This document shows positions 9,937-26,845 of a DNA stretch of 32,000 nt, piece by piece (positions within the stretch are counted from its first letter, which is position 1; each line of letters begins with the position of its first letter). A program made the position numbers and the translations under genes. The notes beneath the pieces are model-generated. The model was not told the origin of the DNA, did not search any database, and saw nothing but the letters and a program-made list of their open reading frames with translations. The stretch lies in the NCBI RefSeq assembly GCF_000011805.1, contig NC_006840.2; one strand, 5' to 3'. Source of the DNA: Aliivibrio fischeri ES114. Lineage in GTDB: Bacteria > Pseudomonadota > Gammaproteobacteria > Enterobacterales > Vibrionaceae.

Positions 9937-9965
9937 ATTCTCGTTTAGAAAAGGACATTCATAAT

Positions 9966-11393: not shown

Positions 11394-11404
11394 CGGAATT
11401 AGTC

Positions 11405-11971: not shown

Positions 11972-11977
11972 TTACTA

Positions 11978-13546
11978 ATGAAAAAAAAAGCACTCATTCT
12001 ATTATCAATAAGTACTATTGCTTTAAGTGGTTTTTGGTTGCGCTCTGCTATTTCGTCACCATCCGAACATACCGTGATAGCAGAACCAATTCCATTACCA
12101 ACAATACAAAACACGCCATCTCGTGAAGCATTTTTATCTAGCTTTCATAAAGAAAAAACACAGCTAAATACAGCGCCAAAAAAGGAACGAGATAATGATG
12201 AAACTACAGAGTATTCAGAGAAAATAAATACTCGAAAAACATCGCCTCAAGAAGATAGAGAAGCTGATTTAGAATATAACGCAGATAAAGTACAAAGCCT
12301 CCCACAGTTGAGCTCGACTCAAAAAACAGGAAGTGTTGGCAACCAAAAACCCAAAGTGGATAACGACATACAGCAGCAGTTACAAACCATGATGTATGCG
12401 TGGAATTTAACGCAATCCACACCGGTAAATTATTCATTTAATATCAACGGTCTTTTTTATGATGAGGAGCATGACTTTATTACCACGAGAGTTCGCTTCT
12501 CTTATCCAGGACTTTCTTTAATCAATAGAGGCGAGCTAACCTTAGTTGGTTCCCCTATCGAAAGTGATAAACCAACTCAATTCATTATTTCGGCAAAAGA
12601 TGACTATCATGGAAATAAAGAAAGTGCATGGACTCATGTAAGCTTTGATTTACCCTCAACAGAAGAGTCAAACTCAAGCGTTGAACACCCATTAATTGGG
12701 CATACCCTTTATCGATTAGAAACAACAAATCATTTTGCTGGCCATAGCTATGAGTATGAAGTTGTTTATTGTGAGGCATTTAAATTCATTAATAACCTCG
12801 CTTATTATGCGGCTTCAACCAATAAAAGAACCTGCCCTACAGAAGAATCGTTATCCGAAGTCGGTACCTATGCCATTGATGACAAACACCTCATTGTAAC
12901 AAGCAGCTATTCAGCTTTTGATGCAGAGCAACGTTGGAAAATACTGCATTCCTATGAATCTAGCTTTAATAAAGGTGAAAGCCTACTTACCACGATTCAT
13001 AATGGAAAAGAGTTTGAGACCTACACAATATTAAAAAATAAACGAGCAATGGAATCTCGTTTAAATGTCGTTACTGGGCAAACCCCTTATCAAATGGAAA
13101 AATTTGAATATTTCTTCCCTACAGATAAGCAAGGAAACTACATTAAAGGCACTGCGGGAATGTATATGATGGACTCTAGATTAGTTAATCCAAACTGGTT
13201 CAGCCTAGATTCTGATCTCAATATTCATTCGGATACGCATAACATGACGTGTGATTTTGTTGTCGCTTTTTATCAAAGTTCAACCATGGGTGGTCAAGGA
13301 GCAAGTGGTATAAGTATAACGTCGAGTTCCGTAGCCCCTAACTATATTGACCCACTAGAATGCGAAGAAAGAATTAACCCAAATAATGGCAAACGCTATG
13401 CGTATCTTGACTTAGATTACTCACCTTATGATGAGTTTGTTGATGGGGGGATCTATAGCTACATTTTAAAACCCAAACCAGAATACGCTCATTTAGTGGA
13501 AGAGTTTAAAGTTAACCTAATCTATCACGCTCCAAATTTAAGCTAA
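11978..13546 (+). CDS. exported protein of unknown function (last gene of kinase/sigma operon)
   Basis: 522 aa. N-terminal hydrophobic signal/anchor MKKKALILLSISTIALSGFWL. A low-complexity polar linker of about 100 aa, then a globular region. Starts 6 nt after the sigma gene. Confidence 0.75.
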   Translation: MKKKALILLSISTIALSGFWLRSAISSPSEHTVIAEPIPLPTIQNTPSREAFLSSFHKEKTQLNTAPKKERDNDETTEYSEKINTRKTSPQEDREADLEYNADKVQSLPQLSSTQKTGSVGNQKPKVDNDIQQQLQTMMYAWNLTQSTPVNYSFNINGLFYDEEHDFITTRVRFSYPGLSLINRGELTLVGSPIESDKPTQFIISAKDDYHGNKESAWTHVSFDLPSTEESNSSVEHPLIGHTLYRLETTNHFAGHSYEYEVVYCEAFKFINNLAYYAASTNKRTCPTEESLSEVGTYAIDDKHLIVTSSYSAFDAEQRWKILHSYESSFNKGESLLTTIHNGKEFETYTILKNKRAMESRLNVVTGQTPYQMEKFEYFFPTDKQGNYIKGTAGMYMMDSRLVNPNWFSLDSDLNIHSDTHNMTCDFVVAFYQSSTMGGQGASGISITSSSVAPNYIDPLECEERINPNNGKRYAYLDLDYSPYDEFVDGGIYSYILKPKPEYAHLVEEFKVNLIYHAPNLS

Positions 13547-13562
13547 AAAAATCATAGAGATA

Positions 13563-13600
13563 AATAAAAAAAGAGCGAAGTGTGTCGCTCTTTTTTGTTT
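13563..13600. terminator. bidirectional terminator between convergent genes
   Basis: AAAGAGCGA (13570-13578) / TCGCTCTTT (13585-13593), with an A-run upstream and a T-run downstream. Confidence 0.8.
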
Positions 13601-13613
13601 GGCCTATGATAGG

Positions 13614-14477
13614 CTAAAAACTCCAGAGTGCCTGTAAACCAGTACTGAATGTATGGGTATCCGCCTCTGGCAGCGTTGCATAGCCATTTTTGGTTTCGCG
13701 CTCTGTACAAACACCATCAACCATGGTGATGCACGTTTCAACTAGCACCGCTTGCTTGTCTGTCTCAAAGCGTTTTTCATAACCTAGCATCGCATACCAA
13801 CCAAGGTGTAACCCTTTCATGACTTCGTAGCTAATGGTTCCTTCAATTGAAACTCTCATTCCAAAATCATTAAACGTATTATCTTCAAACTTAGTATTTT
13901 GAGTCACACTATAAATTGGGAGACCTAATACTGCACGTCCGCTCACTTTCCATTTCTTATCACTAAACAGTAAGCCATTATCGTAAGCCACACCCAAATC
14001 AACAAAAATATCGGTCGAGGTTTCTTCCCATGTGCCATAAAACGCTTTATTGGTGAACCCATTATGGTTTCTCATACCGTAGCGAGTATACGTTTGGTAA
14101 GTAAGTGCCGGACCACCGATAACTCGCCACTCGTCAGTAAGTTTGTAGTGCAGTTGAATGTTGGTCGCCGTTTTTAAATATTCAAACTTATTGGTTTGCA
14201 TTAATTGACCATAATACTTCCAATCTTCTTGTGCACTTTGAGGAGAAAATGAAGCCAAGGCATCAATAGAAAAATCAAACTTATCGTTAATGTAATACAA
14301 GCCACCACTGTTCAAAACAGGGTTTGTGATCGTCACCTTAGATTGTGTTCCACCATAATACTCTTGATACGTTACGTTCTCTAAACCAAACGTAAAGTAA
14401 GAATACCCATAGTTTTTGTCTCCCTCATGCGCCATTGCAAAACACGGCAATAAACCTAACCAGTATATTTTTTTCAT
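13614..14477 (-). CDS. outer-membrane beta-barrel protein, family unassigned
   Basis: 287 aa. Signal peptide MKKIYWLGLLPCFAMA|HEG. Alternating aromatic/polar strand pattern throughout. C-terminal OMP signature ...GLQALWSF with a terminal Phe. Confidence 0.75.
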   Translation of the reverse strand: MKKIYWLGLLPCFAMAHEGDKNYGYSYFTFGLENVTYQEYYGGTQSKVTITNPVLNSGGLYYINDKFDFSIDALASFSPQSAQEDWKYYGQLMQTNKFEYLKTATNIQLHYKLTDEWRVIGGPALTYQTYTRYGMRNHNGFTNKAFYGTWEETSTDIFVDLGVAYDNGLLFSDKKWKVSGRAVLGLPIYSVTQNTKFEDNTFNDFGMRVSIEGTISYEVMKGLHLGWYAMLGYEKRFETDKQAVLVETCITMVDGVCTERETKNGYATLPEADTHTFSTGLQALWSF

Positions 14478-14704
14478 TTTTCGTCCCTAGATGTATTTTG
14501 GGGTGCGAAATATGAGTGATTCATTCCAAAAAACCAATAGTGCTATTGATAAAAAAATAAAATAAATTTTACGGTTTTTTTCCTATTTTCCGTGTCTTGT
14601 TTTGTTTTTTGAACCGGCGTAAAAGTGTCGCACTTTTGAGTTTTACAAATAAATAAACATGTATTGAGGGAAAGGCTACCCTCATCAAAAAGGATTGAGA
14701 CAGA

Positions 14705-17476
14705 ATGAAAAAGGTAAGTTTATTAGCAGCGTCAGTGGCACTAGCGTTAGTAGGTTGTGGCGGTTCTGATGGTGGTTCAGACACCAATACAGGTACACCT
14801 TCAGCTGGCGGTATTGTTATTACTGGTTTTGATGGCTACTTTAAGAATGCGGTTGTGTTTGATGACATGCCTGTAGCAACACGTACATCAACAGTTGGCA
14901 AACTAGATTCTAACGATACTATTTTTGGTTTAACTGATGGAAATGGTAAAATTACTCTTCCAAAAAATACTGAAATTAAAGGTACTCTGAGTTTACAAAC
15001 CATTACTCCTAATGGCGATGTACAAAAGATGCTGATCGCTCGTGATCCAAGTAAATTTGCTGGCATCTATACCATTGATATGGATCATCCAACTCAAGCA
15101 ATGGCACACGAAGTTTCTTTCCGTACTCTTTCTGGTGAGAAAATCATCTCTCCTTTAACAGACCTTGTAGCAGCCAAAGCAGGTACAAATCCAACACCAG
15201 CTCAAATCAAACAAGCTAAAAAAGAAGTAAATACAGCTCTTGGATTGGATGAAGAAAACACTGATGTATTTTCTGATGTCATTGCTGCTGGCGATCATGC
15301 TCTACACAAAACAGCACAAATCTTAACTGAATCAAAAGTAGAAGCTGGTAATAACTATACGCCAACAGCAGCTATCGCTATTGCCGAAAAAGCGACAGAA
15401 ATAGTAAAAGATCCTGAAAATGCAGATAAACTTGATCAACCTAACTTCAAACCAACGATTCCTGTAGACAATACAGGAACAGTCGGTGAAGTGATTATTA
15501 ATAATAAGTTAGTCGTTAGCAAAACTATTTATGACAACCTTATCAAACAAGTAAATAGCGCAGATAAATTTACTGATGTTACAGAAATTTCTCTAATCGA
15601 TTTACCTATCGCTGAACTATTTGTAGATGCTGATAATAAAAATGAAATTATCCCAGAAGTAAAAATCAGTACCGTAAATGGTAGCGATGTTACTGCAGAA
15701 TTTAACATTACTAAAACAGCGACAGAGTTAACTATTTCAGCAAAAAATATCACAACTGTACGTGATACTTATATTGTGACATTAAGCTCTACAGATATTG
15801 CTGTTAATGATAAAAACATGGGGGTAGTTAGTACGACTTTTAAAATCAAAGTTGATCTAGAAAATTCAGCACCAACATTAAACCTACAAGTTAAAAATAC
15901 ATTACAAGAGTGGTTAGGAAGTTTAGAACTACAACAAAATGTTGCTGTATTTGATGAAAAAATGCGTATCAGCGACTTATTTGAAGATGAAGACAAGTTA
16001 ACTTATAGCGTTTATAGCTCTGTTGCAGGTTTAGAGTTTGCACTTGCTCCTTTTAATGATGGCGGTACTGAACTTGAAATATTAGGTAAGCCAAATCATG
16101 CGTACCCAGCAGGTGAAACGATTACAATTTCTGCGACTGATGGTATTAATACTGTTTATGAAGAATTTACATTAGCTGCAATTGCAGAAGCCGGCATTAC
16201 GATTAATGAAATCAAATATGTGGCACTACAAGAAAAAATTACTGATATAACCTTGAAAAAAGGTACCCCTATAATAGAGGCTCAATTAAATATTACAGAA
16301 CTGTTCAATACTGAAAGCGTAAACGGCTTAGGTGCTATTGAATATTATGCAGGCTTAGAAGATAAAGCTCCTGGACCTAATGGTGAGAACCTTCATGAAG
16401 GTTTCACTACTGTAGATGGTGTTAACGTTAATGTTGATACTAATGGCACCCTTACTATTTATGGTGAACCAAACGAGATTATTAAAGGTGGTTACTTCTA
16501 CCTTATGGCAGGTGTAAATGGTGACACCTCAGACGAAATTTCATCTAAAATGGTGAAAATAACTTTATCTGATGTTCAACCTGCGGATGGTGGCGAAATA
16601 ATTCCACCAGAGACAAGCCTTAACCTACAAGATAAATATTTATATAAAATAGAAAGCGGCAATTTCAATGGCGTATCGGGTCTATTCTGTGACATTCGCT
16701 ATTATGATTCTTCTAATAAAAAGTTCTATATGAATATAAGAACAGAAATCAATAAAGAACTTTGTACTGTTGTGAACACAACTCTTTCACCAAGCAACCA
16801 ACCAGAATTATTTGAAGAAGTTGCTGAATATACACTTCAAAATGGAATTTTCACTTTTAGTTATAATGATGGTTCTGAGCAATTTACAACCACTCATTCA
16901 CCTTTACAATTTGATATAGGTTATGACTCTCAAGTATCACCATTTAGCCACTATGTTGTTAGAGCTAATGAGGTTGGGATCGATAATGATGGTGAATATG
17001 AAAGTGCTGAACTTTACTCTCTATATCTTGGAGCAGAGGCCGTTGAGGAGGTTATTGCAGTAAAAACTACCCATCAAAGCGGCAACGACCATACAACTGA
17101 ACCATCAAACTTCAGAAATCAAATGATACATTACACAGATAACAATGAAGTGTCTGAATTCAAAGTCGAAGCTCAAATGCGATCTTTGGATTTCTGTGAT
17201 GGAACGTTAGAAGGCTCAATGTGCGAACAAGGTTTGGCTGATGCTGACCTTATTATCAAAGATATGAGCTGTTCTGAATTTCAAAAAGCCTACAACACTC
17301 CATATGTGAACGGTGAATACTTCATTAATGAAGGTTATATTGAAAACGGTATTAATAAGTGTGGCATCGATTTTTATAGTGAGAGTGCTATTACATCAGG
17401 ATTTTATACTTTCCGAGCTTCACCTAAAAATGAAAATACTCATGAAGAAATTAACTTCAGTTTCAAAAAAGACTAA
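14705..17476 (+). CDS. large surface lipoprotein with three cadherin-like/Ig-like repeats
   Basis: 923 aa. Lipobox LALVG|C (Cys18) followed by a Gly/Ser/Asp linker. About aa 296-622 holds three tandem ~100-aa modules with the cadherin-like pattern (e.g. DLFEDEDKLTYSV...ELEILGKPN...GETITISATDG). The C-terminal ~300 aa are Cys-containing and unassigned. Confidence 0.8.
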   Translation: MKKVSLLAASVALALVGCGGSDGGSDTNTGTPSAGGIVITGFDGYFKNAVVFDDMPVATRTSTVGKLDSNDTIFGLTDGNGKITLPKNTEIKGTLSLQTITPNGDVQKMLIARDPSKFAGIYTIDMDHPTQAMAHEVSFRTLSGEKIISPLTDLVAAKAGTNPTPAQIKQAKKEVNTALGLDEENTDVFSDVIAAGDHALHKTAQILTESKVEAGNNYTPTAAIAIAEKATEIVKDPENADKLDQPNFKPTIPVDNTGTVGEVIINNKLVVSKTIYDNLIKQVNSADKFTDVTEISLIDLPIAELFVDADNKNEIIPEVKISTVNGSDVTAEFNITKTATELTISAKNITTVRDTYIVTLSSTDIAVNDKNMGVVSTTFKIKVDLENSAPTLNLQVKNTLQEWLGSLELQQNVAVFDEKMRISDLFEDEDKLTYSVYSSVAGLEFALAPFNDGGTELEILGKPNHAYPAGETITISATDGINTVYEEFTLAAIAEAGITINEIKYVALQEKITDITLKKGTPIIEAQLNITELFNTESVNGLGAIEYYAGLEDKAPGPNGENLHEGFTTVDGVNVNVDTNGTLTIYGEPNEIIKGGYFYLMAGVNGDTSDEISSKMVKITLSDVQPADGGEIIPPETSLNLQDKYLYKIESGNFNGVSGLFCDIRYYDSSNKKFYMNIRTEINKELCTVVNTTLSPSNQPELFEEVAEYTLQNGIFTFSYNDGSEQFTTTHSPLQFDIGYDSQVSPFSHYVVRANEVGIDNDGEYESAELYSLYLGAEAVEEVIAVKTTHQSGNDHTTEPSNFRNQMIHYTDNNEVSEFKVEAQMRSLDFCDGTLEGSMCEQGLADADLIIKDMSCSEFQKAYNTPYVNGEYFINEGYIENGINKCGIDFYSESAITSGFYTFRASPKNENTHEEINFSFKKD

Positions 17477-17491
17477 ATGTGATTAACTAAC

Positions 17492-17525
17492 AAAAAACCC
17501 CGGTACTCGCCGGGGTTTATTTTAT
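17492..17525 (+). terminator. rho-independent terminator after the lipoprotein gene
   Basis: AAAAAA-CCCCGG (17498-17503), loop TACTCG, CCGGGG (17510-17515), then TTTATTTTA. Confidence 0.85.
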
Positions 17526-17585
17526 CTCTCCCCACCGCCACTTCCATTTAAAACCTTACTCACATCACAAAAAACTCACCTCAAA

Positions 17586-17738
17586 TTTCCATTTCCACTT
17601 TTATTTCCACATTAGGTAAATTTGTAACTTCATAATAAGTAAGGAAATAGAAAAAAAAGTATGATCTATATCTCCTCAAGTATTCCAATTTCCACTTCAA
17701 AGTGGAAAAACTATCTCTGTTCACTTTTTCTTTCCACT
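17586..17738. promoter_or_regulatory. array of TTTCCAC(T) motifs, including a perfect inverted repeat; candidate operator/activator sites for the downstream operon
   Basis: TTTCCA 17586-17591. TTTCCAC 17592-17598 and 17604-17610. Inverted repeat TTTCCACT (17689-17696) tcaa AGTGGAAA (17701-17708). TTTCCACT 17731-17738. All lie within 210 bp upstream of the first operon gene. Confidence 0.55.
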
Positions 17739-17796
17739 TATATTCTTTCATCATCAAGTTAGGTATTAAAAATATTATTTAGAGGAAATAAAAAAC

Positions 17797-18144
17797 GTGA
17801 ATAGTAATACTCTAGAAATAAATGAAGAGTTATTCACTGATGAAGTAGATTCAACGTTCAATAAAGTTATCGATATTTTACGAGCTGAGAATATATTTCC
17901 AGACAGTGTTCAAAAACAAATGCTTTATTCTCATTTAAAAGCAATGGTAATTCGTTCTCATACTAATGAACCATTACCAGAAGTTGAAATTGAAATGTTT
18001 GATGAAATATCTAAGTCATCACACAAATTAGCTGAAGATGTCGTGAAATGGTTTCCGGCATTAGCATACGAAGAAACATATTTATTATCTGTTCACTTTG
18101 AAGTGGCAAAAGAAAACGAATTAACTGAAGAATTAGGAGCTTAA
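17797..18144 (+). CDS. stand-alone PRD-domain protein
   Basis: 115 aa, GTG start with a GAGGA RBS. Helical with several His (SHLKAMVIRSH, SSHK, SVHFE). Matches the small PRD domain-containing protein that heads SFCGS/DUF4310-4312 clusters (recognised from memory of annotation patterns). Confidence 0.65.
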   Translation: MNSNTLEINEELFTDEVDSTFNKVIDILRAENIFPDSVQKQMLYSHLKAMVIRSHTNEPLPEVEIEMFDEISKSSHKLAEDVVKWFPALAYEETYLLSVHFEVAKENELTEELGA

Positions 18145-18145
18145 T

Positions 18146-18508
18146 ATGGCTGATGTAAAAGTAGTTATCGGTGACCGTCTAGGTAAAGGACAAAAAGTAG
18201 GTATGGGTGTTGAAGCTGCAGGTGGTTCTGTAACAGTAATCCCAGGCATGGCAGCAGATATGAAGCTTGGTGATATCATGAAACAAGAAGAAGCTGACTT
18301 CGGTATCTCTTTTTGTGGCAGTGGCGGTGCTGGTGCTATCACGGCTCAAAATAAATACGGTTACAAAGCAAAATATGGTATGCGCTCTGTAGAAGAAGGC
18401 GTTACTGCAATTAATGAAGGTTACAACGTTCTTGGGTTTGGTTTTATGGACCAGGAAGAACTAGGTAAAAAATTAGTTGAAGCCTTCGTTAAAAAATACA
18501 GAAGTTAA
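18146..18508 (+). CDS. glycine-rich SFCGS-family protein
   Basis: 120 aa. Contains the eponymous motif GISFCGSGGAGAITA (Cys57, nt 18314-18316). The ATG is 1 nt after the upstream stop, and the GGAG RBS sits inside the upstream gene. Confidence 0.85.
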   Translation: MADVKVVIGDRLGKGQKVGMGVEAAGGSVTVIPGMAADMKLGDIMKQEEADFGISFCGSGGAGAITAQNKYGYKAKYGMRSVEEGVTAINEGYNVLGFGFMDQEELGKKLVEAFVKKYRS

Positions 18509-18514
18509 TTATTT

Positions 18515-18811
18515 ATGAAAGAATCTATTACAACAACCGTAACGGTCAGTGGTAATGGAAATACAAAACAATCAGCTTTCAGCTCTGCATTAAGTAATAT
18601 TCAAAAAACCATTTTAAAAGATAACGAACAAGTTATTTTACGAATTGAACCTGTTGATGTGAAATTAATTAATGCAGAGAAAAAAGAAAGAATTGAAAAG
18701 TTTATGTTTTTCTTTTTACCAAGAAATAAAACAACCTACTCAGTCACGATTGATGTCACTGTTAATGTCACAGTAATTAATATTGACCAATTAGATTTTA
18801 AATCAATATAA
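18515..18811 (+). CDS. DUF4312-family small soluble protein
   Basis: 98 aa, beta-rich (TTTVTVSG..., YSVTIDVTVNVTVINI), with no His or Cys. Its position after the SFCGS gene is as in conserved clusters. Confidence 0.7.
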   Translation: MKESITTTVTVSGNGNTKQSAFSSALSNIQKTILKDNEQVILRIEPVDVKLINAEKKERIEKFMFFFLPRNKTTYSVTIDVTVNVTVINIDQLDFKSI

Positions 18812-18867
18812 ACACCTATTTATTTAATTAGCACTTAATTAAATATACTAACGGAAGGTATATATAG

Positions 18868-19644
18868 ATGTTCTTAATAATATTAATAAAGTCCCTCATT
18901 ATTGGGGCTTTAGTTGGCGTCGGCGTTGGTGTCGGTGCAGCTCGAATGTTCCATGCTCCAACAGTTCAAGGGATGGGTGCATTCCGTACTCTTGGAGAGC
19001 TTAATTCTTGTGAAGGTGACCCTGCTTCTCACTTCTCTTTTGGTCTTGGTTTCTTCTTTAACGCATGGGCATCATCTGTTGCTGCTGGTGCCTTCACTCA
19101 AGACGTTGATCACCGCATCATTCCTAACTGGGGTGCCGCTGCTCTAATGGTTAAAAACCGTGATGTAGCAACAACCATGCACGACCCGAAAAAAATGGGT
19201 ATTGCTTGTGGCATCATCGGCATGATCGTTGTTGCTTTCTTAAATACAACAGCATCAGCCGTACCAGAAAGCCTACAAATCACAGCCGTTAAAGTACTTG
19301 TTCCTGCAGCTAACCTTCTTGTAAACATCGCGATGCCGGTTATTTTCTGGCTTGCAGCTATTGATGCGGGCCGTCGTTCAGGTTTTTGGGCAACTATCTT
19401 TGGTGGTCTTGCTCATATGATCATGGGTAACGCCGTTCCAGGTCTTGTTCTAGGTATCTTAATTGGTAAAGGTGTTGAAGATGGTGGCTGGAACCGTGTA
19501 ACAAAAACGATGTTAACTGCGGTAATTGCACTGTTTGTTCTAAGTGCCTTCTTCCGTGGATTTGACCTTGAGCTTCTAGAATCTTTCCGACTCACTATCC
19601 CTACATGGTTAGAGAGTGTTCATACAAGCATTAGCGGCAAATAG
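18868..19644 (+). CDS. DUF4311-family polytopic membrane protein
   Basis: 258 aa, Gly/Ala-rich with multiple TM segments (LIIGALVGVGVGVGAA, GIIGMIVVAFL, VIFWLAAIDAG, VPGLVLGILIG, LTAVIALFVLSAFF). GGAAGG RBS. Confidence 0.75.
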   Translation: MFLIILIKSLIIGALVGVGVGVGAARMFHAPTVQGMGAFRTLGELNSCEGDPASHFSFGLGFFFNAWASSVAAGAFTQDVDHRIIPNWGAAALMVKNRDVATTMHDPKKMGIACGIIGMIVVAFLNTTASAVPESLQITAVKVLVPAANLLVNIAMPVIFWLAAIDAGRRSGFWATIFGGLAHMIMGNAVPGLVLGILIGKGVEDGGWNRVTKTMLTAVIALFVLSAFFRGFDLELLESFRLTIPTWLESVHTSISGK

Positions 19645-19662
19645 TAAGTCTGGAGTTTTAAA

Positions 19663-20313
19663 ATGGATGACAAATTAAAGAATAACTTTTGGTACGCAGA
19701 TTGGTCTTTTCCATTCTTCGTAGGTCTGCTTTCTTCAGGCGTATTTGCTGGTACTCACATGTATTACCTATATGGCATCGGCGCATTTAACGAAGTTGCT
19801 TTCGTTTCAATGTTACGAGCAGGTATGGATACAGGTGTTTATGGTGCGGTTGCTGCCTTTGGTGCGAGTTTCTTATTCGCTCGAATCATTGAAGGTTCAC
19901 TAGTTGGTATCTTGGACATCGGTGGTGCAATTCAAACCGGTATTGGACTGGGTGTTCCGGCTCTACTTCTTGGTGCTGGTATTGTTTACCCACTAGAAAA
20001 CTTTGTTGCCTCATTAATTGTTGGTTTCTTCTTAGGCGTGGCAATTGGTTACATCATCATTATTGCTCGTAAATATACCGTTGGCCAAAGTAACTCTACC
20101 TACGGTGCTGACGTCATGATGGGGGCTGGTAACTCATCAGGTCGCTTCTTAGGTCCTTTGATTGTTCTATCTGCAATTGGTGCTTCAATTCCAATTGGTA
20201 TCGGTTCATTAATTGGTGCTCTAGCATTTTATCAATGGCAAAAGCCAATCACTGGTGGCGCAATTTTAGGTGCAATGATTTTCGGTTCACTATTCCCAGT
20301 AGCCATCGGCTAA
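19663..20313 (+). CDS. DUF4310-family polytopic membrane protein
   Basis: 216 aa with multiple TM segments (FPFFVGLLSSGVFAG, GAVAAFGASFLFA, GLGVPALLLGAGIV, LIVGFFLGVAIGYIIII, LIVLSAIGASIPIGIGSLIGALAF). GGAG RBS. Confidence 0.75.
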   Translation: MDDKLKNNFWYADWSFPFFVGLLSSGVFAGTHMYYLYGIGAFNEVAFVSMLRAGMDTGVYGAVAAFGASFLFARIIEGSLVGILDIGGAIQTGIGLGVPALLLGAGIVYPLENFVASLIVGFFLGVAIGYIIIIARKYTVGQSNSTYGADVMMGAGNSSGRFLGPLIVLSAIGASIPIGIGSLIGALAFYQWQKPITGGAILGAMIFGSLFPVAIG

Positions 20314-20370
20314 CCCATCTTGGTAATGCTCTTCAACCAAGAAGAGCATTACATAACACAGGTAAGAATT

Positions 20371-21507
20371 ATGTATGACTTACTCATTAAAAATGGAAAA
20401 TTAGCTAACGGTCACTTTGTCGACATTGCTATTCAAGCGGGAAAAATTGCCAAAATTAGTACCAATATTATCGAAAGCGCTGAAAAAGAAATCGATTTAA
20501 AAGGGCTTCATTACATTAGTGCTGGTTGGATAGATTCTCATACTCACTGTTACTCCGCTTCTCCTATATACAACGATGAGCCTGATTTAATTGGTGTTAC
20601 TCATGGTGTAACCACCGTTGTAGATGCAGGTAGTGTCGGTGCTGATGATATTGATGATTTTTATCAACTAACTCAAAAAAGCTCAACTAACGTATACAGC
20701 ATTCTTAATATTTCTCGAATTGGTTTATTACGACAAGATGAGCTTGCTGATATGAGTGATATTGATTTAGATATCGCCAAAGAAACCATCAACAAACATT
20801 CCGATTTTGTGGTTGGCATTAAAGCGCGAATGAGCGGCAGTGTTGTCAAAGAAAACGGATTAAAACCTTTGGTTAAAGCCAAAGAGATGCAAGCTCAAAA
20901 TAACCACCTACCTTTAATGGTACACGTTGGAAATAATCCACCTAATTTAGATGATATTGCTGAATTACTAACAAAAGGCGACATCATTACACACTGTTAT
21001 AACGGCAAACCAAATCGCATTTTAACTCCAGAAGGTGAGCTAAAAGAATCGATGAAAAAAGCCATTAAACGCGGCGTTATTTTAGATGTTGGTCATGGCG
21101 GTGCAAGTTTCAGTTTTGATGTTGCTGAACAAGCGATTAAAAAGGGAATTTACCCTGACACGATAAGTTCTGATATCTACTGTAAAAACCGAATTGCAGG
21201 ACCTGTACGTAGCCTAGCTCATATCATGTCCAAGTTTTTAACCATTGGTTTATCTCTTGAGCAAGTAATCAACTGTGTAACGATAAATGCTGCAAATGCA
21301 CTACAAATGGACGCAAAAGGTCAATTAGAAGTGGGTAAAGACGCCGATCTAACCATTTTCAATATCCATCATGAACCATGTACTTTTGTCGATTCTGAAC
21401 AAGGAAATCGTCAAGGTAACGAATCATTTTTACCTTTGGCAAGCATTGTTGCTGGCCAAGTTATCACGACACAACACGGAGAAAAAACTGATGTCTTCAA
21501 TTCATGA
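20371..21507 (+). CDS. amidohydrolase/deacetylase-family metallohydrolase
   Basis: The ORF is open from a TTG at 20320. I prefer the ATG at 20371 (MYDLLIKNGKL..., a typical amidohydrolase N-terminus). Metal-binding GWIDSHTHC, later HVG and HCYNG His residues, and the DVGHG motif. Confidence 0.8.
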   Translation: MYDLLIKNGKLANGHFVDIAIQAGKIAKISTNIIESAEKEIDLKGLHYISAGWIDSHTHCYSASPIYNDEPDLIGVTHGVTTVVDAGSVGADDIDDFYQLTQKSSTNVYSILNISRIGLLRQDELADMSDIDLDIAKETINKHSDFVVGIKARMSGSVVKENGLKPLVKAKEMQAQNNHLPLMVHVGNNPPNLDDIAELLTKGDIITHCYNGKPNRILTPEGELKESMKKAIKRGVILDVGHGGASFSFDVAEQAIKKGIYPDTISSDIYCKNRIAGPVRSLAHIMSKFLTIGLSLEQVINCVTINAANALQMDAKGQLEVGKDADLTIFNIHHEPCTFVDSEQGNRQGNESFLPLASIVAGQVITTQHGEKTDVFNS

Positions 21508-22594
21508 GAAGTATGGTCTAACTGAAGTAATTAATGCATCTGGCCGCATGACTGCATTAGGGGTTTCAACGCCAAATGAAGACGTTGTAAATGCAGTAAA
21601 AGAAGGGCTTGGGCAATATTTTGATATGAAAGATCTCGTTATCAAAACCGGTGAATATATTGCTAACCTTCTTAATGTCGATGCTGCGGTTGTTGTGTCT
21701 TGTGCTTCTGCTGGTATCGCTCAGTCTGTGGCTGCGGTTATTGTTAGAGACAGTCAATACCGCTTAGAAAACCTGCACGCTCACTCTCACGATGTTCCAT
21801 CAGAAATTGTACTGCCAAAAGGTCATAACGTTAATTTCGGTGCTCCTGTTGGCACAATGGTAACTCTCGGTGGAGGAACAATTAAAGAAGCTGGATACGC
21901 GAATGAATGTTCAGCGGAACAACTTGAAGCAGCTATCACTAAAAATACTGCAGCGATTTTGTACATCAAATCTCACCACTGTGTTCAAAAAAGTATTTTA
22001 AACGTAGAGCAAGCGGCAACTGTAGCTCAAAAACATGGCCTACCATTAATTGTTGATGCCGCAGCAGAAGAAGATTTAAAAAGCTACTTTGCTATGGGCG
22101 CGGATCTCGTTATCTACAGTGGAGCGAAAGCCATTGAAGGGCCGACAAGCGGGTTAGTTGTCGGTAAAACTCAATATGTAGATTGGGTTCGAAAACAATC
22201 TCAAGGCATTGGCCGAGCAATGAAAGTCGGCAAAGAAGGTATCTTAGGTTTAACTCACGCTATCACTGATTACTTAACTGTTGAAAAAGAATCAGGCCAA
22301 GAAATGGTTGCGAAGATGGAAAAATTCATCGCTGATATGAACACCATTCATGGCGTAACGTCACGAGTAGTGTGGGACAGTGCAGGACGCGATATTGCAA
22401 GAGCTGAGATTGCTTTTGATCATGAAACTCTAGGTACAACAACTAATAATATCGTTAAGCAATTAAATAACGGTAATCCAGCAATTTACTGCCGTGGCTA
22501 CAAAGCTAATGAAGGCATTATTGAGATTGATGTTCGCAGTGTTAACACCACTCAATTAAACACTATTTTCGAAAAAATTAACGCATTATTTTAA
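21491..22594 (+). CDS. DgaE-family (SelA-like fold) PLP-dependent ammonia-lyase
   Basis: The ORF track starts at 21371 inside the upstream gene. I prefer the ATG at 21491 (GGAG RBS 9 nt upstream), which overlaps the amidohydrolase stop by 17 nt. N-terminus MSSIHEKYGLTEVINASGRMTALGVS. PLP-lysine motif YSGAKAIEGPTSG, compare SelA SGDKLLGGPQAG. Confidence 0.75.
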   Translation: MSSIHEKYGLTEVINASGRMTALGVSTPNEDVVNAVKEGLGQYFDMKDLVIKTGEYIANLLNVDAAVVVSCASAGIAQSVAAVIVRDSQYRLENLHAHSHDVPSEIVLPKGHNVNFGAPVGTMVTLGGGTIKEAGYANECSAEQLEAAITKNTAAILYIKSHHCVQKSILNVEQAATVAQKHGLPLIVDAAAEEDLKSYFAMGADLVIYSGAKAIEGPTSGLVVGKTQYVDWVRKQSQGIGRAMKVGKEGILGLTHAITDYLTVEKESGQEMVAKMEKFIADMNTIHGVTSRVVWDSAGRDIARAEIAFDHETLGTTTNNIVKQLNNGNPAIYCRGYKANEGIIEIDVRSVNTTQLNTIFEKINALF

Positions 22595-22606
22595 GAGAGA
22601 TATTCC

Positions 22607-23347
22607 ATGAGTTTAAAAGCTAACTTCTATAAAAACCGTGTATGCCTAAACGTATTAGCAGGCTCTGTTGATAATGCGGCTGATATTTATGACGCAGCAG
22701 AAGGCCATGTCCTTGTTGGCGTTTTATCTAAAAATTACCCAGATGTTGATACTGCAGTGGAAGATATGAAGAAATACAGCGAAGTAACAAACAATGCTGT
22801 ATCTGTTGGTTTAGGTGCTGGAGATCCAAATCAATCAATGATGGTTTCGCTTATTTCACAACACGTACAACCACAGCACATTAACCAAGTATTTACTGGT
22901 GTAGCGACAAGCCGAGCTTTAGCTGGACAGGATAAAAGTATCGTAAATGGCCTTATTTCACCAACTGGCACTGTTGGAATGGTGAAAATATCAACAGGTC
23001 CGTTAAGCTCTCGCTCTGAAGACGCTATTGTTCCAGTAGAAACAGCAATTGCCATGCTAAAAGACATGGGAGGTAGCTCTGTAAAATACTTCCCGATGGG
23101 CGGTTTAGAAACACGTGAAGAATTCGCTTGTGTTGCAAAAGCGTGTGCTGATAAAGATTTCTGGTTAGAGCCGACAGGCGGGATTGACCTTGAAAACTAT
23201 GAAGAAATTATGCAAATCGCATTAGATGCTGGTGTAAGCAAAATCATTCCTCATATCTACAGCTCTATCATAGATAAAGCGACAGGAAATACTCGCCCTG
23301 AAGATGTAAAAACACTGTTGGACATGACAAAAAAACTACTTAACTAA
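22607..23347 (+). CDS. KDGP-aldolase-family protein (2-dehydro-3-deoxy-phosphogluconate aldolase-like)
   Basis: 246 aa. N-terminus FYKNRVCLNVLAGSVDNA, VSVGLGAGDP, KYFPMGGL, LEPTGGIDL: the TIM-barrel aldolase pattern I associate with the KDGP_aldolase family that partners DgaE-like genes. Confidence 0.7.
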   Translation: MSLKANFYKNRVCLNVLAGSVDNAADIYDAAEGHVLVGVLSKNYPDVDTAVEDMKKYSEVTNNAVSVGLGAGDPNQSMMVSLISQHVQPQHINQVFTGVATSRALAGQDKSIVNGLISPTGTVGMVKISTGPLSSRSEDAIVPVETAIAMLKDMGGSSVKYFPMGGLETREEFACVAKACADKDFWLEPTGGIDLENYEEIMQIALDAGVSKIIPHIYSSIIDKATGNTRPEDVKTLLDMTKKLLN

Positions 23348-23357
23348 GTTTGCTCCC

Positions 23358-23397
23358 AAAGGCCAATTATTCGCCCCCGGATATTGGCCTTTTTTAT
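23358..23397 (+). terminator. rho-independent terminator ending the catabolic operon
   Basis: AAAGGCCAAT (23358-23367) / ATTGGCCTTT (23383-23392), 15-nt loop, T-run. Confidence 0.7.
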
Positions 23398-23545
23398 TAA
23401 AAACAAGAGAGAAAATGTATATTTTTCAATAAAATAAATTACATCTACATATACATCACATATTGAATAAATACCATTACCCTAACGTTTTCGTTGGTTG
23501 ATATTATTATCAATATAAACACTTATTAACTGTTCTGGTTTTTCT

Positions 23546-25468
23546 ATGATCCAACTGCCTTATCCTCGTCTTAATGTCATTTTTGAAGCGCTTAGATATG
23601 AAGCCCTTCCTCAGCAAGAGCTTGCTCAGCGTTGTGATATTTCAACACGAACAATTCGAACAGACATCTCTGCCTTGAATGATATTTTGGCTTCTTACGG
23701 TGCCCAAATTCAGCACCAGAGAGGAAAGGGCTATCACTTTGATATCTATGATGAGACCCGTTTTTTGGATATTGAAAAACAAACGAAAAAAATGAAATCA
23801 TCTCCTCGCAACGCCAAAGATCGTATGGTGTATTTGATGATGCGTCTATTATCTCAAGAGGAAGAATGTAAGTTGGATGATCTTGCCAATCAATGGTTTG
23901 TCAGTCGCACTTCATTACAAGCAGATATGGGAGAAATTAGAGAGCAGCTTGAGCAATATAATTTAGAGTTAATAAGTAAAGCGCATTGTGGATTACGCCT
24001 GTTTGGTGAAGAGCAAGCAATTCGAGCTTGTATCGCCCATATTTTATTCCAATTTAAACCAAGTGATCATACGTTTATTGATGTTTGCGAATATTTTTTC
24101 CCAGAGATTAATCAACCATCCTTAAAAACGGATTTACTTGAATTAATTAATAAAAATCACATCAAGCTTACTGATGAAGGTTTGCATCATTTAGTGGTGT
24201 ATTGTGGTGTTGCCCTGCATCGACTAAAACAAAACGCATGCATTCATCACGTAGATCAACCAAATCTCAGTGAAGAAGCACAAAAAACAGCAGCAGAGTT
24301 AAGCCAAACCATAGAAAGTTTACTTGGTGCACCTTTACCTCAAGCAGAAATAGATTATCTAAGCATTCAAATTGCTGCTCGTCGAGTTACTGGCGTTCCT
24401 GAAATCGACACTCAAAAACCAACAGAGCAATTAGAATTAACTCAATACTTATTGGATTACGTTAATACACATTACAACTACGATCTGCGTAATGATGAGC
24501 AATTAAAACGAGACTTACTCTGCCATATAACCACCATGATCTTACGAGTTAAGTATCAAATTACCATTCCAAATCCACTATTTGATCATATAAAACGCTA
24601 TTACCCATTGGCTTATGATATGACTGTTGCTGCTATTTCTCATTGGGGTAAACATTTAATTCCAGATGGTGAGATAGGTTACTTAGTTATGCATATTGGT
24701 GTTGGACTAGAGCGTAATTTCTCACTGGAAGAACAATTACCACCAAAAGCTTTGCTTGTGTGTGACTCGGGAACATCAATTGTACGCTTACTTGAATCAC
24801 AACTTATTCGCTCATTACCTCAACTTACAATAGAAAAAGTAGAGAGTCTTAGAGATTATGAAGAGCTATCAAAAGTAGATGCTGATTTCGTTATCTCAAC
24901 AGAAAAAGTATCACAAAAAAACAAACCAACAATCACGGTATCTCCGATACCAACGAGCTTCCAATTAGAACAAGTAAATAAACTCATTCTAATGAATCGC
25001 TCACACCCATATATGTTGGATAAGTTTTTTGATCACCGTTATTTTTCTGTTCTGGATGAACCAATGACTCAAGGTGAAGTGCTCAAAAAATTCAGCGCTC
25101 ATTTTACAGAAGATAACATCACCCCTATTGAGTTTTACGACTCAGTTATTGAGCGAGAAAGCATTACATCGACAATTTTAGGGGAAGGCATTGCGATTCC
25201 ACACTCTTTGGGATTACTCGCTAACGAGACCAAAGTATATACCATCATTTCTCCACACGGCGTAGATTGGGGGAACGGGAAAATAGCTCATGTAATTTTT
25301 CTTTTTGCTATCAATAAAGACGATTATGAAGAAGCGATGAGCTTGTACGATTTATTTGTGACCTTCATGAATGGTAAAGCCGTCGATACCATCTTAGGCT
25401 GCCACTCTTATGATGAATTTCAATATGTTGCTAAAGAATGTTGGTTTAATCGAAAAAAAGATTGGTAA
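23546..25468 (+). CDS. PTS-controlled transcriptional activator (MtlR/LicR/ManR type: HTH-HTH-PRD-PRD-EIIB-like-EIIA-like)
   Basis: 640 aa. N-terminal winged HTH (LPQQELAQRCDISTRTIRTDISAL). Two PRD-like regions with conserved His (GLHHLVVYCGVALHRL; IGYLVMHIGVGLER). EIIB(Gat)-like Cys406 in ALLVCDSGTS. EIIA(Mtl/Fru)-like His553 in GEGIAIPHSLG. Confidence 0.85.
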   Translation: MIQLPYPRLNVIFEALRYEALPQQELAQRCDISTRTIRTDISALNDILASYGAQIQHQRGKGYHFDIYDETRFLDIEKQTKKMKSSPRNAKDRMVYLMMRLLSQEEECKLDDLANQWFVSRTSLQADMGEIREQLEQYNLELISKAHCGLRLFGEEQAIRACIAHILFQFKPSDHTFIDVCEYFFPEINQPSLKTDLLELINKNHIKLTDEGLHHLVVYCGVALHRLKQNACIHHVDQPNLSEEAQKTAAELSQTIESLLGAPLPQAEIDYLSIQIAARRVTGVPEIDTQKPTEQLELTQYLLDYVNTHYNYDLRNDEQLKRDLLCHITTMILRVKYQITIPNPLFDHIKRYYPLAYDMTVAAISHWGKHLIPDGEIGYLVMHIGVGLERNFSLEEQLPPKALLVCDSGTSIVRLLESQLIRSLPQLTIEKVESLRDYEELSKVDADFVISTEKVSQKNKPTITVSPIPTSFQLEQVNKLILMNRSHPYMLDKFFDHRYFSVLDEPMTQGEVLKKFSAHFTEDNITPIEFYDSVIERESITSTILGEGIAIPHSLGLLANETKVYTIISPHGVDWGNGKIAHVIFLFAINKDDYEEAMSLYDLFVTFMNGKAVDTILGCHSYDEFQYVAKECWFNRKKDW

Positions 25469-25470
25469 AT

Positions 25471-25500
25471 AAAAAACCCCGGAACATGCCGGGGTTTTAC
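25471..25500. terminator. bidirectional terminator
   Basis: AAAAAA-CCCCGG (25477-25482), loop AACATG, CCGGGG (25489-25494), then TTTT. Sits between convergent genes. Confidence 0.85.
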
Positions 25501-25526: not shown

Positions 25527-25799
25527 TTATCTGCGAGGCTTAAACTCAAGCACTGGCGCTTTCTCTCCATCATTCACATCTTTTGGATTGTTAATAACTA
25601 AAAAATCCAAGGCGCGTCCTGTAGGACTAAGTAACGCAAGCTCTTCTCTATGTTCATCTTCCAAACAAATATTTAATGAGATATTTGAAAGCGCCTTAAC
25701 ACCAAATTCATCTTCTAATGTCTCTAGTGCTTCTTGTAGGTTTTCAGCAAGAGACTTACTGTCCCAGCGACCTTTAAATTGGATTTCCAACGACTTCAT
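25527..25799 (-). CDS. small acidic hypothetical protein
   Basis: 90 aa and protein-like in composition (EALETLEDEFGVKAL...). Overlaps the 3' end of the upstream minus-strand gene by 26 nt. Preferred over the low-complexity plus-strand ORF 25462-25830. RBS spacing is poor, with GAGG abutting the ATG. Confidence 0.5.
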   Translation of the reverse strand: MKSLEIQFKGRWDSKSLAENLQEALETLEDEFGVKALSNISLNICLEDEHREELALLSPTGRALDFLVINNPKDVNDGEKAPVLEFKPRR

Positions 25800-26670
25800 C
25801 CTCTACTTTCTTAGTACACATCACATTTAGCATGGAGGTGTTTTTTAATTTTCTGGCCGCACCGTCTTTAAAGAGTCCCAAATTATCAGCACCCCAATAA
25901 GGCAATAATACAGGCCATTTGTCTTTGGTCATTATCGTTGAATCAAGCAAGATTTGCCATTGCTCTTTAGTAACCAAATCCATATCTATTTGCTGACAAA
26001 TTTCTTGAGCATGTAGAGATGTAGCTCTAAGCCATGGCAAACTATTTTCCATATAAAAGCCTTCACTACTGTCATCAGTAAATGGAACTACAAAATGAAT
26101 ATTATTTATCTTTGTTTGCTTACGAATAGTAATAGGATCAGGTTCTGGCTCGCTTACCGCCTCTGGAGCGCTTTCAATCGGTTCTTCAACTTGAGGCAAC
26201 AAAGCTAAGTTCACTTCCCTTAATGCAGCATGCTTAAATAACCGATCACTTTGTAAACTTCTTAATTGCTTTTGCGCTGTAGTGAAATCTTGATAAGGTC
26301 CAATCAAGCAACGCTTAGCTTCTCCCTCTAATTTAAAGTTAATCGAGGCATCCACTTTCTTTTGAATATGATTTACTTTTTCTTTCGTCAGATCCTGATT
26401 AAACACACCACATTGAATCCAAAACTCGCTCTTTCCTTTTTCTAATTTTGGTTGTTGATTTCCCCATAAACCATCACCAATTGGGCAAGCATCTAACAAC
26501 ACATTTTTCGCATCAGAATGCGCAGCTTTAGAAAAACAAATCGAGGTAAGTGCGCTTTCCTTTTTAACCACATCATCATTTGAAGCATCATTGGCATAAG
26601 CATGCGTCATAACAAGGACACTACTTAGTACTCCCAATGAAATTTTTGTTATTTTTATTAATTGAGTCAT
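25774..26670 (-). CDS. secreted protein with SPOR-like domain
   Basis: I prefer the ATG at 26670 (GGAG RBS 8 nt upstream) over the GTG at 26691. Signal peptide MTQLIKITKISLGVLSSVLVMTHAYA|ND. The segment FWIQCGVFNQDLTKEKVNHIQKKV...CLIGPYQDFTTAQKQLRSLQ fits the SPOR beta-alpha-beta-beta pattern. C-terminal domain unassigned. Confidence 0.6.
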   Translation of the reverse strand: MTQLIKITKISLGVLSSVLVMTHAYANDASNDDVVKKESALTSICFSKAAHSDAKNVLLDACPIGDGLWGNQQPKLEKGKSEFWIQCGVFNQDLTKEKVNHIQKKVDASINFKLEGEAKRCLIGPYQDFTTAQKQLRSLQSDRLFKHAALREVNLALLPQVEEPIESAPEAVSEPEPDPITIRKQTKINNIHFVVPFTDDSSEGFYMENSLPWLRATSLHAQEICQQIDMDLVTKEQWQILLDSTIMTKDKWPVLLPYWGADNLGLFKDGAARKLKNTSMLNVMCTKKVEDEVVGNPI

Positions 26671-26845
26671 CAAACTTCTCCAAGCAAGCACTTACAATAT
26701 TATCAGCATAGCAAAAGTTATGTTTCAAATCCGAGAACCTTATTCTAATGCGCTTATATTACTCATTTTCATAGAATAAAATGGCTATCCATAAGCCGAT
26801 AAACTAAAATTATTTTTCCCCTTCTCTATTTATGTCGAGTAACAC

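Follow-up and report, generated by a model that had tools for sequence, protein, structure and literature searches.

We analysed a stretch of 32,000 nucleotides from Aliivibrio fischeri ES114 (contig NC_006840.2), referred to here as the window, which contains a nine-gene cassette encoding a putative five-protein uptake module, three catabolic enzymes and a regulator. The catabolic half varies the logic of the Salmonella dga and Pseudoalteromonas ong pathways in a new way, and the uptake half lies outside the known transporter families.

Eight co-oriented genes span positions 17797-23347 on the plus strand. The first five, taken from the table of open reading frames (ORFs), encode a free-standing PRD protein (115 aa, 17797-18144, TIGR03582), the Gly-rich SFCGS protein (120 aa, 18146-18508, PF14272), the DUF4312 protein (98 aa, 18515-18811, PF14189), and the membrane proteins DUF4311 (258 aa, 18868-19644, PF14188) and DUF4310 (216 aa, 19663-20313, PF14187). 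They are followed by an amidohydrolase of the EF_0837 type (cog3964; 20374-21507, where the ATG at 20374 is the likely start of an ORF that opens at 20320), a pyridoxal 5'-phosphate (PLP) ammonia-lyase of the DgaE family (21491-22594, where 21491 is the likely start of an ORF that opens at 21371) and a KDGP aldolase of the DgaF type (22607-23347; PF07071, NF047796). The ninth gene (23546-25468, plus strand) encodes an activator of the MtlR/LicR type, recognized by its Pfam domains. With start codons taken from profile alignments, the spacings between consecutive genes are 1, 6, 56, 18, 60, -17 and 12 nt, followed by 198 nt ahead of the regulator gene.

A hairpin read from the sequence at 23358-23396 (plus strand), AAAGGCCAAT...ATTGGCCTTT followed by a T-run, is the probable terminator of the eight-gene operon; it was overlooked by the automatic terminator scan because its loop is long. 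A strong GC hairpin past the regulator gene (25473-25498), seen both in the scan and in the sequence, acts as a bidirectional terminator. The layout described in the first-pass annotation of this DNA, of eight tightly spaced genes and a separately terminated regulator, is thus borne out in its coordinates and its terminators. On the upstream side, a hairpin terminator (17495-17518) closes a lipoprotein gene, and five of the six TTTCCAC copies of the window sit within a 146-bp stretch (17592-17737, plus strand) that also holds a perfect 20-bp palindrome, TTTCCACTTCAAAGTGGAAA, at 17689-17708. Across 83 loci, TTTCCAC occurs upstream of the PRD gene at 0.90 against 0.09 per 350 nt, an enrichment of about ten-fold. 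The repeat cluster is a candidate operator/promoter region, and a candidate binding site for the PRD-containing regulator.

Every family assigned by eye in the first-pass annotation passes the curated Pfam or NCBIfam cut-off in hidden Markov model (HMM) searches. The cluster had been called undescribed, and this needs correction, since it is already catalogued by TIGRFAMs/NCBIfam as the conserved hypothetical cluster "EF_0829-EF_0839 / AHA_3910-3917"; as a functional system it is uncharacterized. Literature searches with the DUF names and with Salmonella, Enterococcus and Vibrio locus tags yielded no study on the function of the DUF families or of the cassette, in agreement with the earlier statement that these families have no assigned function. 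Salmonella STM4441-2 are recorded only as function-unassigned and Crp-regulated, STM4446 has been mis-binned as SelA, the promoter region of E. faecalis EF0839 was recovered in a urine screen by in vivo expression technology based on recombination (R-IVET), and in E. faecium a composite transposon bears the cassette.

Catabolic enzymes and the probable substrate

The amidohydrolase matches TIGR03583 at 547 bits (cut-off 432), and its closest relatives in the PDB are 8wzy (E=1e-148), 2ics (EF0837, E=3e-105) and 2ogj (E=3e-62). Entry 8wzy was deposited as a 'dihydroorotase'. From its family membership, the enzyme is proposed to be an N-deacetylase with an amino-sugar acid, or the phosphate of one, as its putative substrate. 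The aldolase matches PF07071 at 373 bits (cut-off 26.7, E=8e-112), passes the DgaF equivalog NF047796 (398 bits against 300), and has a near-identical solved structure (PDB 3nzr, E=4e-160).

The lyase matches TIGR01437 at 611 bits (cut-off 385) and falls below the strict equivalog for DgaE, the ammonia-lyase of D-glucosaminate-6-phosphate (NF047797, 362 bits against 600), so that its substrate may be a stereoisomer and not D-glucosaminate-6-phosphate itself. It aligns with the Salmonella enzyme DGL (PDB 7lc0/7lce) at E=1e-83. In their docking model, the authors of the DGL structures place the 6-phosphate at Arg301/Arg332/Arg346 and the carboxylate at Arg226, and regard His162/His163 as the catalytic residues; the corresponding residues of the window lyase are R304, R335, R349, K226, H162 and H163. 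R304, R335, R349, H162, H163 and the PLP lysine K213 are invariant in 85/85 cassettes, Enterococcus included, and position 226 is either Lys or Arg. Because the three 6-phosphate arginines are invariant, the lyase probably needs, and probably acts on, a phosphorylated substrate, and the earlier claim of such a need can be regarded as very probable. With the phosphate already on the lyase substrate, it would have been added at or soon after uptake.

In the Salmonella dga pathway, uptake through the phosphoenolpyruvate (PEP)-dependent phosphotransferase system (PTS), with phosphorylation, is followed by the action of DgaE and then of DgaF. The first-pass annotation recognized this logic in the catabolic half of the cassette, and the likeness stands: the lyase belongs to the DgaE family, with the His-His pair, PLP lysine and phosphate arginines kept, the aldolase passes the DgaF equivalog, and the proposed order of events is the same (phosphorylation at entry, deamination to 2-keto-3-deoxy-6-phosphogluconate (KDPG), and cleavage). 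However, dgaABCDEF includes a mannose-family EIIABCD and a sigma-54 regulator, neither of which is present in the cassette, which instead adds the cog3964 amidohydrolase and has PRD, SFCGS, DUF4312, DUF4311 and DUF4310 as its putative uptake genes.

In about 26 enterobacterial loci an extra co-oriented gene, absent from the window, lies between the aldolase and regulator genes (e.g. locus L047, positions 14538-15689, and L032:14763-15986). It encodes a seven-bladed beta-propeller lactonase (PF10282, E ~1e-99), with a Sec signal peptide recognized by eye. A secreted lactonase suggests that the precursor is an extracytoplasmic aldonolactone and that the imported species is an aldonic acid, and together with the deacetylase-type amidohydrolase it indicates an amino-sugar acid bearing an N-acetyl group, most likely N-acetyl-D-glucosaminate (GlcNAc1A) or a close stereoisomer. 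GlcNAc1A is the end product of chitin lytic polysaccharide monooxygenases (LPMOs) of the C1-oxidizing type; acids of this kind derive from aldonolactones that form through the action of such LPMOs or through periplasmic sugar oxidation. The lactonase and the analogy with known GlcNAc1A catabolism also lend support to the initial guess of an N-acylated amino-sugar acid.

Catabolism of GlcNAc1A in Pseudoalteromonas proceeds through the symporter OngIT, the deacetylase OngB, the deaminase OngC and the kinase KdgK, with no early phosphorylation (PMC9537276). The ong cluster of Pseudoalteromonas prydzensis (Jiang et al. 2022, PMC9537276) resembles the cassette in the sequence of deacetylation, deamination to a 2-keto-3-deoxy acid and cleavage by an Entner-Doudoroff aldolase, and both are found in chitin-associated Gammaproteobacteria. 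The proteins are non-orthologous, judged by family membership: OngB is of the D-aminoacylase type, OngC is a fold-type III PLP enzyme, OngIT belongs to the SSS symporters and KdgK serves as the kinase. Unlike in the route proposed for the cassette, the ong intermediates are unphosphorylated up to 2-keto-3-deoxygluconate (KDG). In a study of Aeromonas, LPMO, KdgK and KdgA were present, and neither OngB nor OngC had a good counterpart; the cassette described here occurs in Aeromonas.

The proposed uptake module and its links to the phosphotransferase system

The SFCGS protein (accession AAW86998 in ES114) matches PF14272 at 210 bits (cut-off 27.3, E=6e-63) and TIGR03577 at 225 bits (cut-off 141). 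It is soluble, with a single Cys (Cys57, in GISFCGSGGAGA) and no His; the SFCGSGGAG motif does not vary among 84 sequences, nor in the divergent subfamily, and no His is conserved. Two divergent homologues (L094:9621-9998 and L095:944-1300) have His in place of Asp10, which is invariant in the main family (GHR for GDR), with the Cys loop unchanged. An AlphaFold2 (AF2) model built with 30 homologues has a mean predicted local distance difference test score (pLDDT) of 92, with five strands and five helices. The top 45 Foldseek matches to this model in the PDB are all RpiB, LacAB or DhuI (4u8f) structures, with a best E-value of 5.5e-6 and template modelling (TM) scores of 0.57-0.72. RpiB structures are also matched by phmmer, and the Pfam family LacAB_rpiB (PF02502) scores 20.0 bits, under its threshold of 24.7 (E=7e-4). 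In an hhalign comparison with E. coli RpiB (E=4.8e-4, 67 columns), Cys57 falls on the catalytic Cys66 and Ser59 on Thr68. An SFCGS homologue searched against Pfam gave no match to PTS_IIB (PF02302), even at E<=10.

The model points to an RpiB/LacAB isomerase fold and to no known EIIB fold, SFCGS is EIIB-like in neither sequence nor structure, and the Cys is homologous to the catalytic base of the isomerases. The features shared with RpiB/LacAB (PF02502) are the five-stranded alpha/beta fold and the Cys in a C-G-[ST]-G loop where strand 3 ends. SFCGS differs in being about 30 residues shorter, in having no C-terminal phosphate-binding helix, and in always being encoded together with two membrane proteins. 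Since it ends at residue 120, short of the region equivalent to RpiB 126-149, and since the position of RpiB His99 is occupied by the variable Asn90, it shares the RpiB fold without being a typical RpiB; the C-terminal Arg/His residues of E. coli RpiB bind phosphate. The Cys loop of RpiB stabilizes an anionic intermediate, and recruitment of Cys57 as a phospho-Cys site is thus chemically plausible. SFCGS is proposed to be a phospho-Cys carrier, or else an isomerase-like subunit.

The membrane proteins match their families closely (DUF4311: PF14188, 397 bits, cut-off 27, E=2e-119; DUF4310: PF14187, 346 bits, cut-off 27, E=9e-104), and also pass TIGR03580 and TIGR03579, respectively. The window DUF4310 and an A. 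fischeri protein (P0241) share 100% identity, and DUF4311 and DUF4310 are each 77-80% identical between Enterococcus and the window. In a full HMM scan, the DUF4311 profile matched only 128 of 1.84 billion cluster representatives, mostly fragments, and no member of another transporter family was among them. Hydropathy predicts at least five spans in each protein, and conserved Gly/Ala/Phe-rich segments of sub-threshold hydropathy lie at residues 21-109 of DUF4311 and at residues 1-57 and 135-157 of DUF4310. A six-sequence alignment across subfamilies shows invariant charged residues in DUF4311 (R26, R40, E44, D51, H55, D79, H82, R83) and in DUF4310 (E44, R74, E77, D85). Read by eye, the segments and their charges are consistent with re-entrant loops that would form a polar binding site, and the two proteins are proposed, from sequence, to be partner subunits of a translocator. 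Paralogy between them was hinted at by a forced MAFFT overlay and is not supported by BLAST or by hhalign (E=0.08). Two metagenomic proteins from contigs of 2-3 kb (P0092 and P0053) are apparent DUF4311-DUF4310 fusions with internal deletions, and may be assembly or deletion artefacts instead of natural fusions.

The DUF4312 protein (PF14189, 125 bits, cut-off 27, E=1e-36; TIGR03578 passed) is of the alpha+beta type. That it has neither His nor Cys, and that SFCGS has a single Cys, was correctly noted in the first reading of the sequence. PDB profile searches found no solved relative, the best match being Alba2 at E=0.12, and DUF4312 is probably an accessory subunit.

The free-standing PRD protein matches TIGR03582 at 153.6 bits (cut-off 69) and PDB entry 3nuf at E=6.5e-12, and its two canonical His positions are conserved (His46 in at least 80% and His100 in at least 95% of sequences). 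Its gene is always the first of the module, including in the cassettes of Shouchella and Pilibacter, which are regulated by GntR-type proteins, and the small first ORFs of the divergent subfamily give weak PRD matches. Because it heads the module even under a GntR-type regulator, the PRD protein belongs with the transport genes. PRD domains are known to accept phosphate from HPr and to partner with EIIB~P, which makes the PRD protein the only plausible stand-in for an EIIA. It is proposed to be a phospho-His relay or a regulatory subunit.

The regulator contains HTH_11, Mga, PRD (E=2e-27, two stretches) and EIIA_2 (E=1.5e-17) domains. Among 83 orthologues, His327 and His383 of the second PRD are 100% conserved, the EIIA-type His553 is 95% conserved and the Cys at the EIIB position (Cys406) is 94% conserved. 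The segment around this Cys matches PTS_IIB weakly (E=0.02, 16 bits, cut-off 23.6), and BLAST finds no similarity between it and GatB. The regulation was initially described as wholly of the PTS type; this holds for the PRD and EIIA-type His and for the conserved Cys406, but the EIIB-like segment stays below the cut-off. The protein resembles the activators MtlR, LicR and ManR in its HTH and Mga-like domains, two PRDs, Cys at the EIIB position and C-terminal His of the EIIA(Mtl/Fru) type. It differs from them in that its EIIB-like segment is barely detectable and its operon encodes no cognate canonical EIIA/EIIB for its phosphorylation, and the orthologues in Firmicutes have no EIIA domain.

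In both Microvirga genomes (Alphaproteobacteria), a gene for a fused HPr-Enzyme I (EI) lies 17-98 nt past the cassette and before aroA (L052:8268-10424 and L098:16554-18593, both on the minus strand). The GLHARPA and GGxTSHVAI motifs are intact, and no EII gene lies near the Microvirga cassettes and their HPr-EI genes. With only 67% identity between the two HPr-EI copies, the linkage has outlasted considerable divergence, though it represents a single evolutionary event. In six further loci, L004 (Aeromonas, 16491-19883), L045, L048, L063, L081 and L083, the cassette abuts npr-rapZ-ptsN(-hpf-rpoN). The loci with this arrangement are from Aeromonas and several Yersiniaceae/Hafniaceae, and the adjacency could reflect a functional link to NPr or merely a shared insertion site. 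Together, the regulator, the PRD gene and the HPr-EI neighbours tie the cassette to EI and HPr, with roles in transport and in regulation not separated by these data.

Distribution and gene neighbourhoods

At least 501 genomes contain a relative of DUF4311 in a pattern scan that took one genome per species, and the carriers include Salmonella, Yersinia, Serratia, Aeromonas, Vibrionaceae and enterococci. In 76 of the 85 informative loci the same nine genes are present in the order of the window, showing that the arrangement is not due to chance, and in 5 further loci the regulator gene is placed in front. The proteins most conserved with respect to the window are DUF4311, DUF4310 and SFCGS (median identities of 84%, 83% and 79%), followed by the aldolase (73%), lyase (71%), amidohydrolase (59%), PRD protein (53%), DUF4312 (49%) and regulator (44%). 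The most divergent full-length subfamily (L094) has the same eight-gene set, with DUF4312 shifted to the end of the cluster, and the module was never seen with any other enzyme set in the surveyed loci.

About 80 proteobacterial loci are flanked by housekeeping genes of the pmbA-cybC...nrdDG or dolP-diaA-lpoA neighbourhoods, and no recurrent linked kinase, EII or other transporter was found across them. With flanks of this kind, the cassette must provide its own uptake, leaning only on ubiquitous host functions, and in Proteobacteria it is a self-contained, horizontally mobile island. Family scans of the window likewise found no EIIA/B/C/D, sugar kinase, ABC, MFS or TRAP genes in the operon or adjoining it, and no SSS or PfkB genes are present in the window. 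The claim that kinase and EII genes are missing thus holds for the window and the proteobacterial loci, but not throughout the Firmicutes, where EIICs often occur and two cassettes have a PfkB gene beside them. The first-pass annotation further raised the idea that the module and canonical EII genes might be mutually exclusive, which the survey contradicts for Enterococcus, Pilibacter and E. faecium.

The EIICs in Firmicutes belong to different families, and the L092 cassette adjoins a mannose-type EII set. In Enterococcus sp. (L002:11574-14317) and Pilibacter (L089:13665-16441), extra genes between DUF4310 and the amidohydrolase encode an EIIC of the Lac/Cel/chitobiose family, a protein of 83-88 aa that matches no Pfam family significantly and a 6-phospho-glycosidase of the MupG type; the EIIC and glycosidase fit a disaccharide branch. 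The Pilibacter cassette additionally has an inserted GntR regulator. The E. cecorum cassette has no linked permease. The PfkB gene is co-oriented with the cassette in Enterococcus sp., is encoded in Shouchella on the other strand and accompanied by a GntR of its own, and is missing from the Pilibacter, E. cecorum and L092 loci. In L092, a short-form 6-phosphogluconate dehydrogenase gene follows the aldolase gene.

'Martelella alba' (L099) and Xenophilus were considered as PTS-poor test cases and rejected. The L099 cassette is decayed (DUF4311 cut to 118 aa, DUF4310 missing, and lactonase and regulator fused by the gene call), and its Enterobacterales-type flanks (darP, pmbA, cybC) suggest that the record is misassigned or contaminated; like the six loci above, it adjoins npr-rapZ-ptsN. 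The Xenophilus cassette has no PTS neighbour. Upstream of the cassette in the window, genes for a Ser/Thr protein kinase (8611-9936) and an extracytoplasmic function (ECF) sigma factor (11405-11971) stand among large ORFs without a Pfam match (8611-17476), including that of a 923-aa lipoprotein (14705-17476). On the downstream side, an ORF on the minus strand (25774-26691) has no Pfam match.

The uncharacterized E. coli K-12 cluster yhfZYXW-php-yhfUTS (L006:6936-14345), for which the literature searches likewise turned up no study of function, offers a parallel. YhfY is a PRD protein homologous to that of the window (E=2e-7), YhfU (117 aa) has the motif IGACNTGAGAAL at the matching position, with a weak RpiB-profile match there (E=0.065), and YhfT is a polytopic membrane protein. 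The cluster also encodes PLP and amidohydrolase-superfamily enzymes, which differ from those of the cassette, and no kinase or EII. Homology of YhfU to SFCGS is not supported, with no BLAST match and an hhalign E-value of 0.16, nor is that of YhfT to DUF4311/DUF4310, with no similarity found. The yhf parallel is a lead, not a demonstrated relationship.

Proposed group translocation and its alternatives

The leading model, which we hold tentatively, is PTS-type group translocation by the five leading genes. PRD, SFCGS, DUF4312, DUF4311 and DUF4310 would form an uptake module, in which DUF4311 and DUF4310 would make the membrane translocator that holds the substrate and uptake would be coupled to phosphorylation through the general PTS proteins. 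Phosphate would pass from PEP through EI and HPr to a PRD-protein His (in the role of EIIA), then to Cys57 of SFCGS (in that of EIIB) in a step that would use the anion-hole loop inherited from RpiB, and then to the C6 hydroxyl of the substrate. The 6-phospho product would be deacetylated by the cog3964 amidohydrolase, deaminated and dehydrated to KDPG or a stereoisomer by the DgaE-type lyase, and cleaved to pyruvate and glyceraldehyde-3-phosphate by the DgaF-type aldolase. The MtlR/LicR-type activator would turn the operon on under the control of HPr, and possibly of the module too. The substrate's identity, the function of the module as a transporter, each of the phosphotransfer steps and the part played by DUF4312 are our inferences. 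The first-pass annotation suggested an EII-like permease of four proteins; group translocation is still favoured, with the same reserve, and the free PRD protein, which that suggestion overlooked, is added as a member of the module. So conceived, the module resembles canonical PTS Enzyme II complexes (Glc/Fru/Lac, Asc/Gat, Man) in its soluble Cys protein with membrane subunits, its use of EI/HPr and its PRD-type regulation, but no sequence or fold likeness to EIIA, EIIB, EIIC or EIID was detected, and the PRD protein would replace EIIA.

Several observations weigh against this model. No PTS EIIB is among the top 50 Foldseek matches of SFCGS in the PDB, hhalign of SFCGS with the EIIB GatB gives E=0.58 over 8 columns, and isomerase ancestry alone could account for the conserved Cys57. 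Searches of DUF4311 and DUF4310 for similarity to EIIC/EIID (PF02378, PF03609, PF03613) gave only DUF and chance-level matches, PDB profile searches with the two proteins found no solved relative, and AF2 applied to the fusion P0092, with an alignment of 8 rows, gave a pLDDT of 36.6 and no usable fold. To our knowledge no PRD protein acts as an EIIA-like relay, and the regulator and linked HPr-EI may reflect regulation only. On the side of the substrate, the phosphate-cluster assignment in DGL is a model that rests on manual docking, with no structure of a complex, and the known GlcNAc1A route requires no substrate phosphorylation. Firmicute cassettes often carry canonical EIICs inside or beside the cluster (Enterococcus, Pilibacter, E. 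faecium), and a PfkB resembling kinases of KDG or 2-keto-3-deoxygalactonate (KDGal) lies beside the cassette in Enterococcus sp. (L002:17532-18542) and Shouchella (L088:16176-17171), which fits an unphosphorylated route.

In an alternative that we regard as possible but somewhat unlikely, DUF4311 and DUF4310, with SFCGS and DUF4312 as accessory proteins, simply import the substrate and an unlinked host kinase phosphorylates it later. As in the ong pathway, KdgK could phosphorylate KDG once deacetylation and deamination are complete; otherwise, glucosaminate could be the target of an enzyme resembling gluconokinase. The PRD proteins would serve only PTS control, such as catabolite repression or inducer exclusion. 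The characterized GlcNAc1A pathway, with OngIT, OngB and OngC acting ahead of KdgK, sets a precedent for it, KDG-kinase-like PfkB genes lie beside two cassettes, and no module protein resembles EIIA, EIIB or EIIC. PRD regulators are, moreover, known targets of HPr in carbon catabolite control. However, the phosphate arginines of the lyase, invariant in 85/85 cassettes, are hard to square with an unphosphorylated substrate, and none of the roughly 80 proteobacterial cassettes has a linked kinase despite movement of the island between phyla. The PfkB linkage is inconsistent among Firmicutes, and a role in regulation alone does not account for the PRD gene's continued association with the transport genes under a GntR-type regulator.

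The fold of SFCGS raises another explanation, which appears improbable: that SFCGS, perhaps with DUF4312, is a true isomerase or epimerase of the RpiB type that works on an intermediate of the pathway, perhaps by changing the stereochemistry of a 2-keto-3-deoxy or amino-sugar(-phosphate) species or the place of its keto group, and that DUF4311/DUF4310 is an ordinary secondary carrier. The catalytic Cys and the Ser/Thr that follows it are kept along with the fold, the RpiB-fold enzyme DhuI (4u8f) acts on deoxy-keto-uronates, and a lyase that scores under the DgaE equivalog may have a substrate of different stereochemistry. Nevertheless, SFCGS has no C-terminal phosphate-binding helix, the His99 position is variable, its score stays under the LacAB_rpiB threshold (20 against 24.7 bits), and its conservation (79%) tracks that of the membrane proteins and not that of the enzymes. 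The route from deacetylase through lyase to aldolase has no need of an isomerase step, and aldonic acids do not have the carbonyl that RpiB chemistry requires. The canonical EIICs of differing families in Firmicute cassettes, the mannose-type EII set beside the L092 cassette, and the constant association of the module with one enzyme set, which is odd for a transporter family, would also suit a membrane sensor, signal relay or membrane enzyme that informs the PRD regulator while the substrate enters through unlinked PTS permeases. We consider this very improbable: the proteobacterial and E. cecorum cassettes have no linked permease, the module is retained where the regulator is of the GntR type without a PRD, and a Gly/Ala-rich polytopic pair with invariant charged intramembrane residues resembles a translocator.

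A broader form of the group-translocation model, in which the module and, as a distantly related second member, YhfY/YhfU/YhfT constitute a new PTS permease superfamily, with the PRD protein as the EIIA-like and an RpiB-fold protein as the EIIB component, and in which the substrate is GlcNAc1A from LPMO-oxidized chitin, seems to us rather unlikely as a whole. Were it true, it would define a PTS-linked route for oxidized chitin in Vibrio, Aeromonas, Serratia, Yersinia, Salmonella and Enterococcus.

Even if import proves to be of an ordinary kind, DUF4311/DUF4310 would stand as a transporter family that is both new and sharply isolated. Should the module act as a PEP-dependent group translocator, it would represent a new family of PTS permeases, with an EIIB of isomerase-derived fold and a new role for a PRD protein, and it would provide a handle on the yhf cluster of the E. 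coli y-ome. If the substrate is GlcNAc1A, the cassette would give the products of oxidative chitin degradation a second route, one built of non-orthologous proteins, which could supply the 'missing' OngB/OngC functions in Aeromonas and would be relevant to the chitin-fed squid-vibrio symbiosis.

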